From contig JBHLMN010000007.1 of NCBI GenBank assembly GCA_048938105.1, positions 160,001 to 224,000 on the forward strand: a DNA stretch of 64,000 bases. Direction: 5' to 3'. Positions 7,778 to 54,591 of the stretch are shown here, in pieces (position 1 is the first letter of the stretch; each line of letters starts with the position of its first letter). This DNA is from Promethearchaeota archaeon (GTDB lineage: Archaea > Asgardarchaeota > Heimdallarchaeia > Hodarchaeales > Hodarchaeaceae). The notes beneath the pieces are model-generated. The model ran no database searches. It had not been told where the DNA came from and worked only from the letters and a program-made list of their open reading frames with translations. A program made the translations under genes and the position numbers.

Positions 7778-8641
7778 TTGTCTTTGACAGACGTAGTAGA
7801 TTTGTCATTTGTCCAGATATACTTACTTAACATTTTGATTTCTTATTCAACAGGAGCTATTCGATTTACGTTATTAAATCAAATCAATGATGTTTTCTTT
7901 CATGAAAAACCTTTAGCACCATCTACGTTCTATAATAGTTTACGTAGACTTGAGAAAAAAGGGTTTGTTTCTTTTCAAGAGGATGACAAGAGTTCAAAAG
8001 GAAAAAGTGTCCAGGCGACACTCTTAGGTAAAATAGCTATCCAGATGATCACTCAAATGATGATTTTCAACATTTGGGACATAGGAACGATTTTAAAAGA
8101 GATTGTTCCAGAAGTAATTGCAAAAACTGAATTAAAACCAGTTCATTCTTCTCTTCTAATCCATTTTGATGAATTATTAAATGTGGAATTATTTGATGAA
8201 TTCTATTATCCATACTCTGAAGAACTTTATGTCTTAGCTAGTGATGAATATTATGATAGATACTTAAAACGAGGAATAACAGAGGTACACCAATCAAAAT
8301 TCCGAAATAAGAAGATTCGTGAACCTAATAACTTTTTTGATGCTACATTCTTAGTACGTTACCGAAAAACGGATAAATTCGGGATCTCAGAAATTGAAAT
8401 GCTTCAGGAAGCATTAAGGGTTACAAAGCCAAAAGGAAAGTTAATAATCATATCAATTAATGACATTCCTCAATCGAATCACTTTATTCCAGACGCCATT
8501 GGACAATTTGTAATTCAAAATCCATTCTTTTTTTCAATAAATGAACAAGATTTAAGATCGGATTTTAATGAGGTAGGTATTCAAAACCTGAATGTGCATA
8601 ATATCAATGGAATGATAGTTGCATGGGTAAATATTTTGTGA
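7778..8641 (+). CDS. PadR-like wHTH regulator fused to a methyltransferase-like domain
   Basis: N-terminal PSTFYNSLRRLEKKGFV...TLLGK resembles PadR. C-terminal FFDA...LQEALRVTKPKGKLIII resembles the tail of a class I SAM-MTase. Confidence 0.7.
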   Translation: MSLTDVVDLSFVQIYLLNILISYSTGAIRFTLLNQINDVFFHEKPLAPSTFYNSLRRLEKKGFVSFQEDDKSSKGKSVQATLLGKIAIQMITQMMIFNIWDIGTILKEIVPEVIAKTELKPVHSSLLIHFDELLNVELFDEFYYPYSEELYVLASDEYYDRYLKRGITEVHQSKFRNKKIREPNNFFDATFLVRYRKTDKFGISEIEMLQEALRVTKPKGKLIIISINDIPQSNHFIPDAIGQFVIQNPFFFSINEQDLRSDFNEVGIQNLNVHNINGMIVAWVNIL

Positions 8642-8773: not shown

Positions 8774-9037
8774 TTATTCAACTTTTCCAGCAGCAAGTCG
8801 AATATCGGAGTCTTTTATGGTTTTACGCCCCGAATGACCAGCAATTTCCACTGCATAGCGAGCAATTTCTAGGCCTCTATTAACGATGATTTGATTCAGA
8901 CTTGTAATAGCATCAGCTGAAACCCGAAAAGCTCCCGCATCTCTTATGAGTCTCTCAACACGAGCTCCTGCAAAACTTGCTTCTCCTTTTGCTGGCTTTG
9001 GTGCTGCTTTCTTCGCAGGTGTTTTCTTTTTTGCCAT
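8774..9037 (-). CDS. Archaeal histone with Lys-rich N-terminal tail
   Basis: Histone fold ARVERLIRDAGAFRVSADA...AGHSGRKTIKDSDIRLA, preceded by MAKKKTPAKKAAPKPAKGE. Confidence 0.95.
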   Translation of the reverse strand: MAKKKTPAKKAAPKPAKGEASFAGARVERLIRDAGAFRVSADAITSLNQIIVNRGLEIARYAVEIAGHSGRKTIKDSDIRLAAGKVE

Positions 9038-9063
9038 TTTAAATCACAATTTCTCACTATATG

Positions 9064-9115
9064 AAGTCTTGAAAGACTTAAAAATAAAATTAATCACCCT
9101 TTATAAACATTTATC
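9064..9115 (-). promoter_or_regulatory. Histone promoter: BRE/TATA and palindrome near the predicted TSS
   Basis: TTTATAAA at 9100-9107 with a purine-rich BRE-like stretch upstream on the - strand. AAGTCTT-GA-AAGACTT palindrome at 9064-9079. Confidence 0.55.
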
Positions 9116-9236
9116 CAGTATTAGCACGAAAGAAGAATATATTGAAAAATTAGAGTTCTTTCGTATAGATTATATTCTTTTTACAATTTTCCCATAGTAA
9201 TCTTACAAGGATCGATGAATGAAATCTTATTTTCCA

Positions 9237-10505
9237 TTAAAATGGTTCAAACGTAAAAGGGGATTCTTTGGTCTTAAAAAGCTCATTTAGACTATTAAGA
9301 TATGTCTTATTAGTTATTTGAACTAATCCATATTCGTAAAGCTTTTTTAGATCAATAGTTCCCATTACTAGACTAGAAAACCGCGCAATGTCAATGGATA
9401 ATTCTACATTATAATCTTCTCCAACTGGAATCACTTTTGGTCTTCCTTTTTGAAAATGGATTATTAGTTGACTATCGTTTTCAGGTATGAATGAATCAAT
9501 GATGGTTAACTTCAATTTGATACTCTGGTTTCCAAAATTATGATCAGATAATAAATTAAAGAATTTTGAAGAATTAATTACTCTGTACATAATCCCTACT
9601 CCTTGAATGTTACTCTCCTGAAAGATATGAAAGATATTTTCATTACCTCGGCTTCTTGGTTCCATCAAAAAATGATGAAAATAATGATCGTGAGTATTAT
9701 AGCGAATTCGATGAACTTGATCTTGTTGAGTAGCAAGAAATGATAACAAGCCCAAGAAAGCTTGTGGTGATTCATAAATAAATTCCATAATGTGTAGATC
9801 ATGTTGAAGCCAACTCCCACCTTCCACACGTTTCAAACGAAAGGCTAAATAACCTACTAAAATATTATTTTCCCAATAGCCAATAATTTTCATTCTAAGC
9901 AATTGTTTAAAGGCATCACTTTCCTCTTCCCGTAAAATCATACCATGTGTTGTTGTTGCATATCTGTTAAAGCATTCTGAAATGGCTTTTATATCTTTAA
10001 TAGATAAATAGGATATATTTCCTTTTGTGGTTAATCGTAATGCTTTTGGTTCAAAACTGTATTGATTCATCTTATTTCCTAAACCATAACCCATCCTCGC
10101 ATAAAAATCTGGTGCAAATGGATATAAACATGTTAAACAATACCCACGATCGTAATAGTGTTTATGAGCAAATATCATTAGATCTTTAGCAACATGTTCT
10201 TTCTTATGTAGAAGATCAACGCACACTTCCCCTATTCCACCACATTTAACAATATTCTTTGAATATAAGTTCATTTCAAAATCGTATAGAATCATTCCTC
10301 CCAACAATTTGCTATCTTGAAAACATCCATAAAAATTCACTTTAGTATTTTCATCATTAGTTTTAATCCATTCAGCTTTTTTCTCTCTTTTCATATCTTC
10401 CGTAAAATTATCTGGTACTTGTCCAGGATATGCTCCTGCCCAAATATCTAAAAAAAAGTTAAAATCATTGTCAACTAACTTTCTAATTGTTCTTTTTTCT
10501 TTCAT
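9237..10505 (-). CDS. Eis-like GNAT acetyltransferase (tandem GNAT + SCP2-like domain)
   Basis: About 420 aa. GGIGEVCVDLLHKKEHVAKDLM and LYPFAPDFYARMGYG, plus a C-terminal SCP2-like IDIARFSSLVMG segment. Confidence 0.88.
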   Translation of the reverse strand: MKEKRTIRKLVDNDFNFFLDIWAGAYPGQVPDNFTEDMKREKKAEWIKTNDENTKVNFYGCFQDSKLLGGMILYDFEMNLYSKNIVKCGGIGEVCVDLLHKKEHVAKDLMIFAHKHYYDRGYCLTCLYPFAPDFYARMGYGLGNKMNQYSFEPKALRLTTKGNISYLSIKDIKAISECFNRYATTTHGMILREEESDAFKQLLRMKIIGYWENNILVGYLAFRLKRVEGGSWLQHDLHIMEFIYESPQAFLGLLSFLATQQDQVHRIRYNTHDHYFHHFLMEPRSRGNENIFHIFQESNIQGVGIMYRVINSSKFFNLLSDHNFGNQSIKLKLTIIDSFIPENDSQLIIHFQKGRPKVIPVGEDYNVELSIDIARFSSLVMGTIDLKKLYEYGLVQITNKTYLNSLNELFKTKESPFTFEPF

Positions 10506-10522
10506 ATGAATTTTCCAATCCT

Positions 10523-11119
10523 TTAACCTTGTAATGATGAGAATGTCACTCCTTTTTCCGTTATCATGATTATAGGGCTACTTATAGCTGCTGATAGTGT
10601 TATAACAAGTGTTTTTTCTGTCTGCTCCTTCTGGAAATGATGAACGTGTCCAGCTACTAGAATTGCTGGATGATATTGGTCAACAAGCTTTCTTATTTTC
10701 TTATTACCACAATGGGGAATCATTTTTGTATGAAATGGATCACTACACTGGTCTGCTAAACCGAATGCCGGTTCATGAGAAACTAAGACATCAAGATTTT
10801 TTGGAATAGAAACTGGTTCACATTGATAATCAATACCGAAGAATCGTAATCCAGTTAATTCCTTGAGTTTATCTAGATGATTGTTTAACCAGAAGAAATT
10901 TGGTATTCTCTCCAGTTTTTGATGGAGTTTTTCTTTCCCCCAGGTTTCTTTATTTCCTTTTATGCTAAAAAATGGCAAAGGGAATTCAAAATTATTGTGC
11001 GTTGGATATTGGTGATAGTTAAAGATATCTCCACAGCAAATACAAAGGTCAACTGTCTCTGCGATTTGAAATAACCTGGTGAAATCTCCCTCAAAATCAG
11101 TACTAAGAAGAATTTTCAT
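10523..11119 (-). CDS. Calcineurin-like metallophosphoesterase
   Basis: D-x-E, CGDI, GNKE, SHEP and GHVH motifs. Two canonical His positions are altered. Confidence 0.85.
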   Translation of the reverse strand: MKILLSTDFEGDFTRLFQIAETVDLCICCGDIFNYHQYPTHNNFEFPLPFFSIKGNKETWGKEKLHQKLERIPNFFWLNNHLDKLKELTGLRFFGIDYQCEPVSIPKNLDVLVSHEPAFGLADQCSDPFHTKMIPHCGNKKIRKLVDQYHPAILVAGHVHHFQKEQTEKTLVITLSAAISSPIIMITEKGVTFSSLQG

Positions 11120-11300: not shown

Positions 11301-12053
11301 ATGCTAAAGAAAAAAGAAATTGCTTTGTTAAATTCAAATGTTAAAAGCTGTTTTAATTGCAACCTTTCTAGAACCCGAAACAATCCCATTTGTGGAGAAG
11401 GAAACTTAAACGCAAAAATCTTGCTGATAGCACAAGCTCCAGGTATTCAAGAAGATAGCAAAGGAAAGATGTTTGTTGGTCCATCAGGTCAGGTACTAAA
11501 TGAGCTCCTGAAAGGAGCTAATATAAACCGAGAAGATATCTACATGACCAATTTAATAAAATGTATTCTTCCAAAGTATCGGAAACCAAAAGCAAAAGAA
11601 ATTACATCTTGTAGTCAATATCTAGATAGAGAGATTGAAATAATTAAACCACAAATCTTGGTACCTTTAGGATTCCGTGCAATAAGATATATTTTTACTA
11701 AATATTGTCAAGAAATTCCTTCAAAGGAGGAGTATAACACAATCTTTGGAAATCTCTATTTATCTCCCAATAAAAAAATTTTACCTCTTCCTCATCCTGC
11801 AACATTATTACATAATCCATCTAATATAGAGGAAGTAAAATATCATTATTATAAACTTAAAATCGTTTCAAAAGATTGTAAATGGTACAGAGTTTGCCCA
11901 ATAAAACATTTTTATGAACAAGGGAAAATCCCAAGCATCTGGGTCAAACTATATTGCAAAGGGGACTGGTCTAGTTGTGTTAGGTTCCACATGGAAGAAG
12001 AGGGAAAGTATCATTCTGATTATATGCTCCCAGATGGAACATTAATAGAATAA
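11301..12053 (+). CDS. Family 4 uracil-DNA glycosylase with extra Cys-rich C-terminal domain
   Basis: CxxCxL Fe-S motif, AQAPG, FVGPSG, TNLIKC and HPA, then CKWYRVCP...YCKGDWSSCVRF...MLPDG. Confidence 0.88.
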   Translation: MLKKKEIALLNSNVKSCFNCNLSRTRNNPICGEGNLNAKILLIAQAPGIQEDSKGKMFVGPSGQVLNELLKGANINREDIYMTNLIKCILPKYRKPKAKEITSCSQYLDREIEIIKPQILVPLGFRAIRYIFTKYCQEIPSKEEYNTIFGNLYLSPNKKILPLPHPATLLHNPSNIEEVKYHYYKLKIVSKDCKWYRVCPIKHFYEQGKIPSIWVKLYCKGDWSSCVRFHMEEEGKYHSDYMLPDGTLIE

Positions 12054-13175: not shown

Positions 13176-13772
13176 CTAAGAGAATTGATCAGCAATGCAA
13201 TCATAACAAAGAGTTATTTTTACATTATCTGGTTTCGTAATAATCTCTGCACATTCTGTACAAAAAAGTTTCAAACACTTCGAACATTTCATTATTCCAG
13301 GTACGCTTTTACAGCGTTGGCAATAATAATCGGAAGAGTCACTCCCTAATTTTATTACGAGTGATTCCAAGATTTTTTTTATAGTTTGAGGGTTTTTAAT
13401 TACGCTAGAATTAACCCAAAATCTTTCAGTGAGTTGAGGAAAATCCTTTTCTACCAATTCAGAAGGAAGGAAGTCTTGCAGCGAATTTGTCTCAACAAGA
13501 TCAAGATCAATCCTCCAAGTCGCTTTTGGATAGACAAAAACATATTTTCGACCTTTAATCTTTATTTCTAATAACCCAATTAATCCTGCTTCTTCCAGTG
13601 CGGTTAAATGAAAATCAAGCCCTGCTCTTTGAAGATTAAAATGAGTGATTAAGTCAGTTTTAATTAAGAATTTTTCGTTTGTAATATAGTTAAAGATTTC
13701 TAATCGTTTCTTGTTAGAAATTGCTTTTAATATCGGTTCAAGAGAAGTGTTGGATTTCATTCTTGTACACAT
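13176..13772 (-). CDS. ArsR-type HTH regulator with C-terminal B-box-like zinc finger
   Basis: LKAISNKKRLEIF...HLTALEEAGLI, followed by CxxC-x7-CxxC-x4-CxxC...CxxC. Confidence 0.8.
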   Translation of the reverse strand: MCTRMKSNTSLEPILKAISNKKRLEIFNYITNEKFLIKTDLITHFNLQRAGLDFHLTALEEAGLIGLLEIKIKGRKYVFVYPKATWRIDLDLVETNSLQDFLPSELVEKDFPQLTERFWVNSSVIKNPQTIKKILESLVIKLGSDSSDYYCQRCKSVPGIMKCSKCLKLFCTECAEIITKPDNVKITLCYDCIADQFS

Positions 13773-53730: not shown

Positions 53731-54591
53731 CTATCTTTTAGCTCTTAGAAATGTCCCTTTATGATATTCTTCAAAAGCGGTTTTAATTTCTTCTTGTGTA
53801 TTCATAACAATAGGACCGTACCACGCAACTGGTTCTTTAATCGGTTTCCCCGAAACCAAAAGAAATCGCACATGTTCATCTTCTGATGCTGTAATTTGTA
53901 CCAATTCACCTTCCCTGAAGATTATGAGATGTTCTTTGGAAACTAGTTGTTCTTTATTTGGTTCAAAATAGCCCTTTCCCTCAAAACAATATGCAAAAAC
54001 AGTATAATCTTTATTAACTCTGTGTTCAAATGTTGTATTCTCAGGGATGAATACATCAATGTATTCAGGATTAGTTACAATATTTTGAACAGGTCCCTTG
54101 ATACCATTGATTTCTCCAGCTAAGATTCTAATTTTAATCCCATTATTAATCATGATTTCAGGAACCATATCTGCAGGAATATCTTGGTAGCGAGGTGGCA
54201 TCATTTTATTAGTTGCTGGAAGATTAACCCAGAGCTGGAACCCCCATAATAGGCCATCCACTTGTGCTGGCATCTCTGAATGAATGATACCAGATCCAGC
54301 TGTCATCCACTGGATATCTCCACTCTTAATGACACCTTGATTACCAATAGAATCTTGGTGTTCTACTTTTCCTTCAAGCATATAAGTAACAGTTTCAATA
54401 CCCCGATGGGGATGATTAGGAAATCCTGCAATATACTCATCTGGATTGTCAGAATGAAAATCATCAAATAAGAGGAATGGATCGAGTATTACTACTTCCC
54501 GATGAGCAAATGCACGTTTCAAATGAACACCTGCTCCCTCAATTGTCGGTTTACTCTTGGAAACTCTCCGTATTCTTCTAATTTTGTTCAT
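53731..54591 (-). CDS. Pirin family protein
   Basis: EGAG, DPFLLFD, HPHRGIETVTY, WMTAGSGIIHSE, QLWVNLP, YGPIVMNT. Confidence 0.96.
   Translation of the reverse strand: MNKIRRIRRVSKSKPTIEGAGVHLKRAFAHREVVILDPFLLFDDFHSDNPDEYIAGFPNHPHRGIETVTYMLEGKVEHQDSIGNQGVIKSGDIQWMTAGSGIIHSEMPAQVDGLLWGFQLWVNLPATNKMMPPRYQDIPADMVPEIMINNGIKIRILAGEINGIKGPVQNIVTNPEYIDVFIPENTTFEHRVNKDYTVFAYCFEGKGYFEPNKEQLVSKEHLIIFREGELVQITASEDEHVRFLLVSGKPIKEPVAWYGPIVMNTQEEIKTAFEEYHKGTFLRAKR

Follow-up and report, generated by a model that had tools for sequence, protein, structure and literature searches.

The window considered here is a 64,000-nucleotide stretch of DNA (contig C42, positions 160001-224000) from a metagenome-assembled genome of the Hodarchaeales, an order of the Asgard archaea, whose assembly encompasses 5.85 Mb in 65 contigs with a G+C content of around 34%. 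Close to its start, the window harbors three consecutive genes on the minus strand, which encode a small metallophosphoesterase (MPE; 10523..11119), an Eis-type acetyltransferase of the GNAT superfamily (9237..10505) and a histone with a lysine-rich N-terminal tail (8774..9037). The original prediction, made from the letters of the window, had described these genes as a possible histone-modification locus; their coordinates proved exact, with gaps of 17 bp and 199 bp, the latter being the spacer between the GNAT and histone genes (9038-9236). Tailed histones of the Asgard archaea are central to the origin of the modification-based chromatin of eukaryotes, and the Hodarchaeales are the closest known archaeal relatives of the eukaryotes. 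The recurrent pairing of the GNAT and histone genes, and what it may say about the acetylation of histone tails, is the subject of this report.

The histone is a nucleosomal protein of 87 residues that belongs to the long-tailed, HMpB-like type of the Hodarchaeales. It is recognized by PF00808 (2.5e-11, 44.1 bits against a cut-off of 21.4) and by the NCBIfam model archaea_histone NF043032 (1.8e-24, 85.9 bits against a cut-off of 50). In the histone alignment the loop residues (AGA-type L1, RKT in L2 and a subsequent Asp) and DNA contacts are kept: R26, G35, R38, S40, G70, R71, K72, T73 and D78 are invariant, and the fold carries the signature of this histone type, IRD[AM]GAFRVS. The sequence ahead of the histone fold is MAKKKTPAKKAAPKPAKGEAS. 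The tail, encoded by positions 8975..9037 of the minus strand, is 21 residues in length, is rich in lysine, alanine and proline (K/A/P-rich), and contains seven Lys, three Pro and one TPAK. Comparisons were made with the other genomes of the genus (G001-G020, giving 21 in all with G000, the genome of the window) and with a set of metagenome loci (L116, L117, L118, L120, L121, L128, L137, L139 and L143). A long-tailed orthologue is found in 14 of the 21 genomes, and the orthologous tails from the genus and the metagenomes are 12-32 residues long and likewise K/A/P-rich. For the other families of the order or class, long-tailed histones of this type were not found in G021 and G022, and there were zero matches in G023, G027 and G033.

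The window genome contains around 10 histone-fold genes, among them untailed forms of 67 residues, one doublet, a histone with a short tail (contig C27) and a fusion protein of 364 residues. The last of these (C2:52046-53140; L011:1441-2535) combines a histone fold at its N-terminus (PF00808, 3.6e-4) with a strongly basic C-terminal run of Lys and Arg, and probably represents the histone-fold fusion class that has been described for the Hodarchaeales (PMC10919886). A gene for a 212-residue GNAT lies 3 kb upstream of it.

Upstream of the tailed histone gene, two short elements are found on the minus strand. The first is a GTGAT motif (9043..9047), 6 nt from the ATG, which appears to be Shine-Dalgarno-like and is kept as GTGAT or GGGAT in the class-A orthologues that are described below. 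The second is a TATA-like box, TTTATAAAG (9099..9107), which sits 70 nt upstream of the ATG and is the putative histone promoter. An alignment shows the box, TTT[AT]T[AT]AAG, in each of the 12 related loci compared, at around 55-85 nt from the start codon, and it is kept under any upstream gene, whether this is the Eis-type GNAT, a Zn-ribbon open reading frame (ORF), an FR47-like GNAT or an ArsR-like gene. A caveat attached to the original prediction, that the histone has a TATA box of its own, is thus borne out across the relatives. The histone gene appears to form its own transcription unit, driven by this conserved promoter, which agrees with the published rule that archaeal histones are usually found as single-gene operons (PMC10919886).

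The 422-residue protein encoded next to the histone is a true Eis-family GNAT. It displays the three-domain Eis architecture, with Acetyltransf_9 (7e-25), Acetyltransf_17 (4.4e-10) and SCP2_2 (3e-13) domains in Pfam. A profile built from 15 orthologues matches Eis homologues in the PDB over nearly their full length, with values that span 1.2e-19 to 4.5e-4; the best is 3n7z from Bacillus anthracis (1.2e-19), and the others include 2ozg (Anabaena), 2i00 and 2hv2 (Enterococcus), Eis1 and Eis2 of Mycobacterium abscessus, and Eis of M. smegmatis. The AlphaFold2 model of the protein has a mean predicted local distance difference test score (pLDDT) of 75, and its top Foldseek matches are all to Eis-family chains, over the full length, with template modeling (TM) scores of 0.65-0.71 (3n7z, 2i00, 3sxn, 3r1k and 6b0u), of which 6b0u is an Eis structure with a lysine peptide bound. 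Tyr135, found within an FYxxMGY motif that aligns with 3n7z and 2ozg, is invariant in the GNAT alignment, as is Y140, and Phe422, the last residue, is at least 90% conserved, such that the archaeal orthologues end in E[PQ]F. From the Eis literature, we take Y135 of the FY-x-x-x-GY motif to be the catalytic tyrosine, and the carboxylate of the C-terminal Phe presumably reaches the active site. Eis enzymes are further characterized as hexamers.

Within the Eis family (PRK01346 superfamily) the protein is nonetheless a distant member rather than an Eis orthologue, since the NCBIfam Eis models give it 20-50 bits against cut-offs of 259-788; its best score is 50.4 against a cut-off of 259, and with the Eis equivalogs it reaches 19.9-23.5 where 576-701 is required. 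Orthologues of the Eis-type GNAT occur in 14 of the remaining 20 genomes in the genus, and the 19 genomes compared from different families within the class gave none. The window genome also carries two further, more distant Eis-like paralogues.

The third gene, separated from the start of the GNAT gene by a spacer of 17 bp (10506..10522), encodes an MPE of 198 residues. Given this short spacer, and a tandem arrangement that is kept in relatives, the MPE and GNAT genes probably constitute one two-gene operon. The locus would then comprise two transcription units: the single-gene histone unit and, directly upstream, the MPE/Eis-type GNAT operon. The protein is recognized by PF00149 Metallophos (1.5e-6, 29.2 bits against a cut-off of 21.5), a direct PDB sequence search with it gave zero matches, and its family is found only in the Hodarchaeales, as 45 clusters of 50-87% identity. 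In the window its motifs read D-F-E, GD, GNKE, H and GHVH. GNKE replaces GNH[DE] in 16 of the 16 aligned members, with the His of motif III becoming Lys, and motif I is D-F-E in the subclade of the window, with most family members having D-F-H. Retained metal ligands are D8, D31, N56, H115, H158 and H160, and the family also has four invariant cysteines (C26, C28, C125 and C137). The nearest folds to its AlphaFold2 model (pLDDT 88), all weakly similar with E-values of around 1e-6 to 1e-4 in Foldseek, are those of Dbr1, aq_1956, SbcD, GpdQ, MPPED2 and the purple acid phosphatases; a PPP-type protein phosphatase is absent among the matches listed. In fold and metal ligands the MPE resembles small calcineurin-like enzymes (YfcE/MJ0936-type, Dbr1, GpdQ and MPPED2), from which its family differs by the GNKE motif and the four cysteines, and the subclade of the window by the Glu of motif I.

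Two candidate identities were rejected. The best family match of the MPE is PDC-S10, a candidate family of defence genes in PADLOC (3.6e-15, near full-length), which raises the reading of the locus as a defence system. PADLOC gave zero matches for the histone and for the GNAT, this candidate family is the only one that the MPE matches, and the MPE differs from typical defence genes in being single-copy and vertically kept, in 17 of the 21 genomes of the genus. The second is a PPP-type Ser/Thr phosphatase: the 198 residues compare with a core of around 280, the motifs are unlike GDxHG/GDxVDRG/GNHE, and the folds listed are phosphodiesterase- or nuclease-like, not those of PP1, PP2A or lambda phosphatase. 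Both the sequence and the model point to a small atypical phosphodiesterase-like enzyme, and a role as a histone-tail phosphatase is not supported.

The original prediction had gone further and proposed a phospho-eraser beside the acetyl writer, in what would be a three-gene module, with the GNAT writing acetyl marks and the MPE removing phosphate from the threonine of the TPxK site in the tail. The tail of the window indeed has its one TPAK, and the three genes are contiguous in G000, G003, G009, G011, G014, L116 and L120, all of which keep the MPE-GNAT tandem; in G012 and L128 the MPE is found near the GNAT in other orientations. Against this, an S/T-P-x-K/R motif is present in only 2 of around 16 distinct orthologous tails (TPAK in G000 and SPKK in L117), and in G008, G018, G020 and every class-B genome the MPE and the pair are found on separate contigs. 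The small size of the enzyme, the GNKE that runs through its family, the D-x-E of its subclade, the phosphodiesterase and nuclease folds nearest to it and its match to PDC-S10 also argue against the module. Moreover, acid-extracted histones from Loki and Hod cultures displayed lysine methylation and acetylation, and phosphorylation was undetected (bioRxiv 10.64898/2026.07.02.735847). We regard the three-gene module as very improbable. That part of the first reading is corrected here: the TPxK site is unconserved, and the MPE, often unlinked and not PPP-like, is not to be taken as a histone phosphatase. It would act as a co-transcribed partner of the GNAT in the subclade of the window, their tandem being limited to the core of class A.

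The GNAT-histone pair has a different history. In class A, the Eis-type GNAT and the histone are co-oriented with the GNAT first, an order seen in G000, G003, G009, G011, G014, G008, G018, L116, L120, L121 and L128. The whole neighborhood is collinear in the first five of these genomes, so adjacency there says little by itself. In G008, the pair is kept with different flanks and the MPE is absent from the locus, and in G018 and L128 an inserted ORF of the membrane/Zn-ribbon kind separates the two genes. None of the other 20-odd neighbor genes of the window lies beside the pair in G018, L121 or L117. The pair has thus outlasted the 22-gene neighborhood of the window in these three, and nearly so in L128, where of the window neighbors only the MPE is adjacent, together with a distant CysK homologue around 3 kb off. 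The inserted gene encodes a small membrane protein that carries a zinc ribbon at its C-terminus and is found in the G018-like lineage (L031:2414-2749, L152:552-899 and L128:4439-4783); the L128 copy looks frameshifted near its C-terminal end.

A further arrangement is found in L117/L118, where the histone is inverted and convergent with a 422-residue Eis-type GNAT at a distance of 141 bp, and where a citrate transporter and a DNA methylase flank the pair. The L117 GNAT is 43% identical to that of the window and groups, on a long branch, with the G001/G016 proteins (98 in the Shimodaira-Hasegawa-like approximate likelihood ratio test, SH-aLRT), outside the class-A clade. With this placement, the pairing is found on both sides of the deepest split within the GNAT clade of the Hodarchaeales. 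Overall, conserved synteny, the check proposed with the original prediction, holds for the Eis-type GNAT/tailed-histone pair, which is seen in at least 5 flanking contexts, and fails for the three-gene unit, as the triple is confined to the loci named above.

In class B (G002, G004, G013, G017, G019 and L137), a different GNAT takes the position beside the tailed histone, which is divergent to a gene for an FR47/GNAT_acetyltran-like enzyme of around 290 residues and has a pirin gene immediately downstream, on its other side. The Eis-type GNAT of these genomes is found on another contig without a nearby histone, and in G013 no Eis-type GNAT was found; the gene downstream of the Eis-type GNAT in G017 was checked for a relation to Roadblock or histone proteins, and none was found. 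Two further genomes were assigned to neither class. In G010, the histone is beside an ArsR/B-box gene and an ABC transporter, both of which are neighbors of the window locus as well, and this genome, which is 87% complete, gave zero matches to the Eis-type GNAT or the MPE anywhere. In G020, the GNAT is followed by a radical-SAM gene that runs off the contig, and the tailed histone is at the very start of another contig. The orientation of the pair thus varies between tandem, divergent and convergent, and, in view of this variation and of the promoter that the histone has of its own, co-transcription cannot explain the linkage.

How far the pairing exceeds chance was estimated from metagenome histone loci that had been fetched regardless of their neighbors, including 38 Hodarchaeales-like contigs, in which GNATs were called with a home-made hidden Markov model (HMM) built on G000. 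This HMM matches 66 of the 5112 ORFs of at least 100 residues in G000 (1.3%), and with PF00583 of Pfam each genome in the genus yields 29-65 matches. GNATs make up 7 of the 60 first neighbors of Hodarchaeales histones (binomial p=1.3e-5 against 1.3%). When ranked by distance from the histone, 9 of 103 neighbors at ranks 1-2 are GNATs, versus 0 of the 73 from rank 3 outward (Fisher p=0.007), and GNATs are confined to ranks 1-2 rather than spread over the wider 5-kb flanks, which argues against a merely GNAT-rich flexible region. Around 32 histone loci from outside the Hodarchaeales, 0 of 190 neighbors are GNATs. For the long-tailed metagenome loci with enough flank, 6 of 7 have a GNAT at rank 1-2. 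A chance pairing, with two neighbors at 1.3% each, would have a probability of around 1e-3 to 1e-2, a post hoc figure, and is unlikely. The reservation in the original prediction that Eis-like genes are widespread and the adjacency perhaps fortuitous is correct in its first half, given the bacterial homologues described below, and its second half is countered by the recurrent pairing and the enrichment.

The most likely meaning of the adjacency of the GNAT and histone genes is a functional coupling, with lysines of the K/A/P-rich tail being acetylated by the Eis-type enzyme; we hold this reading tentatively, as one that gene order and analogy favor at somewhat short of an even chance. The acetyl group would be transferred from acetyl-CoA to the epsilon-amines of the tail lysines, as mycobacterial Eis does on HU/HupB, and acetylation would lower the positive charge of the tail and its grip on DNA. 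Both the substrate relationship and the effect on chromatin are put forward here as conditional steps. The acetyl writer of the original prediction gains in this way from the recurrent adjacency, the enrichment and the Eis fold, and stands as a candidate. A more specific proposal is that the Hodarchaeales possess writers genomically coupled to their substrate, with the Eis-type enzyme, or in the sister group the FR47-like GNAT, being a dedicated tail acetyltransferase and the pair having moved as a unit; this we consider rather unlikely.

Several observations weigh against functional coupling. The adjacency counts are inflated by shared ancestry and represent perhaps 3-5 independent contexts; the count of about five, on which the chance estimate above is based, takes class A, L117, class B, L139 and L143 as one each. 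Co-occurrence is loose, with both genes in 12 of the 21 genomes, the GNAT only in 3, the histone only in 2 and neither in 4; G001 and G016 keep the GNAT without a long-tailed histone, and G010 and G013 have the histone without a detected Eis-type GNAT. To these can be added the varying orientation and the separate histone promoter already described. The net charge and isoelectric point of the GNAT are indistinguishable between histone-linked and unlinked orthologues. Homologues of the GNAT with 37-43% identity exist in Bacillota (Sporomusa, Tissierellales), Thermotogota (Thermotogaceae), Chloroflexota and Bathyarchaeia, and the neighbors examined of these bacterial and Bathyarchaeia homologues included neither a histone nor an MPE and zero shared partner genes. 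The basic function of the family therefore cannot depend on a tailed histone. Finally, the tails of cultured Asgard histones are often methylated, and acetylation was detected once (bioRxiv 10.64898/2026.07.02.735847).

Much of this evidence is also what would be expected if there were no enzymatic link at all, and if the GNAT, with or without the MPE, acted on polyamines, aminoglycoside-like compounds or other proteins, the adjacency having arisen from descent, short spacers and rearrangement. The identity between Hodarchaeales and bacterial GNATs (40-43%) is similar to that within the genus, to the class-B and G001-type orthologues (41-46%), which suggests a substrate that is not lineage-specific. 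The loose co-occurrence and the histone promoter are in keeping with such an explanation, and most of the adjacent cases fall in one clade. It accounts less readily for a pair that survives the loss of its surroundings in G018, L121 and L117, for the replacement by a different GNAT beside the class-B histone, and for an enrichment that is limited to ranks 1-2. We judge this explanation to be a serious possibility, if somewhat less than an even one.

The coupling could also be to chromatin with another target. The GNAT might modify the N-terminal alpha-amine of the histone (Ala2 or Pro2 after removal of Met), lysines within its fold, or a different DNA-binding protein of high abundance. GNATs are found to adjoin untailed Hodarchaeales histones as well (L139, L143 and G012:C237), and a 176-residue GNAT lies beside short-tailed or Arg-tailed histones (G000 C27 and G014 C306). 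These associations would fit a target other than the long tail, but characterized Eis enzymes acetylate lysine epsilon-amines and multiple amines of polycations (PMC6363676), and the strongest association is with the long K/A/P-rich tail, at the 6 of 7 metagenome loci. Such a target seems improbable. As for the 176-residue GNAT itself, its gene in the window genome is divergent from that of the short-tailed histone (tail MTKKPKRKAG; C27:209139-212163, L115:3139-6163), with a gap of 2.27 kb that holds zero ORFs longer than 62 residues. Its orthologues adjoin histones in G012 (C237) and G014 (C306, with an Arg-rich tail), and not in ten other genomes.

A number of other genes near the locus are also of note. 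An ORF of 287 residues (7778-8641, plus strand) is convergent with the histone gene at a distance of 132 bp and has zero Pfam or NCBIfam matches. Its look-alikes in the ESM Atlas (0.95-0.96) are archaeal proteins in which a PadR/ArsR winged helix is fused to a Methyltransf_11-like domain. The GxGxG motif for S-adenosylmethionine is not visible, such that the methyltransferase part may be degenerate, and the ORF lies beside the histone elsewhere only in G003 and G011; it is of interest as methylation reportedly predominates on Hodarchaeales tails. On the other side of the three genes, a family-4 uracil-DNA glycosylase (11301-12053, plus strand) is matched by Arch_udg (4e-46, below the cut-off) and by TIGR00758 (above the cut-off), and ends in a C-terminal extension of around 65 residues, which contains several Cys and His and falls outside the uracil-DNA glycosylase models. 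Beyond it, a gene on the minus strand (13176-13772; also L108:6799-7422) encodes an ArsR-type winged helix-turn-helix fused to a Cys-rich B-box/FYVE-like finger. This ArsR/B-box gene is directly upstream of the MPE in G009, G011 and G014, and in G010 a 52% identical orthologue is directly upstream of the tailed histone; from these positions the MPE-GNAT genes look like a two-gene block that is present or absent within a conserved ArsR/ABC-transporter/histone neighborhood. A pirin gene (53737-54591, minus strand) shares the contig with the histone at a distance of 45 kb, and its 59% identical orthologue is the immediate downstream neighbor of the class-B tailed histone and lies 5 kb from the histone in G010.

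The elements of this locus can be compared with several known systems. Tailed histones have already been described as a class, encompassing HMpB and HLoB (bioRxiv 10.64898/2026.07.02.735847) and HA of Heimdall LC_3 (PMC6136690). The histone of the window is like HLoB, HMpB and HA in having a lysine-rich disordered N-terminal tail, a nucleosomal fold and a genome with around 10 paralogues. For histones of this class in cultured relatives, DNA wrapping, high abundance and tail modification in vivo have been demonstrated (bioRxiv 10.64898/2026.07.02.735847). The literature search returned zero papers that link an Eis-type enzyme to Asgard histones, and none was found that names a histone writer for the Hodarchaeales; Eis and synteny occur nowhere in the text of the preprint on cultured Asgard histones (bioRxiv 10.64898/2026.07.02.735847), nor does "acetyl" in the review of Hodarchaeales histones (PMC10919886). 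The recurrent pairing names a concrete candidate tail acetyltransferase for the Hodarchaeales, from a family that acts on mycobacterial HU. The closest archaeal precedent is LoHAT2, a GNAT of Lokiarchaeum that was chosen by AlphaFold-Multimer screening and that acetylates histone tail peptides in vitro (bioRxiv 10.64898/2026.07.02.735847). Judging from the residues quoted, LoHAT2 appears to be a small, single-domain protein, whereas the window enzyme is of the Eis type.

The nearest parallel is found in the mycobacteria, where Eis acetylates several lysines of HU (HupB/MtHU), with the result that DNA binding is lowered and DNA is decompacted, and where the sirtuin Rv1151c reverses the modification (PMC6363676). 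Eis of M. tuberculosis has the same fold and three-domain architecture as the GNAT of the window, and the tail of HU is likewise basic and K/A/P-rich. The two systems differ in that HU bears its tail at the C-terminus, whereas here an N-terminal tail precedes an archaeal histone fold, and in that it is gene adjacency alone that connects the window enzyme to its proposed substrate. We know of no report of eis and hupB as neighbors in mycobacteria. If the more specific proposal of a dedicated, genomically coupled writer is true, the Hodarchaeales pair would be the archaeal equivalent of Eis and HU, and would represent tail-based regulation of chromatin in an early form.

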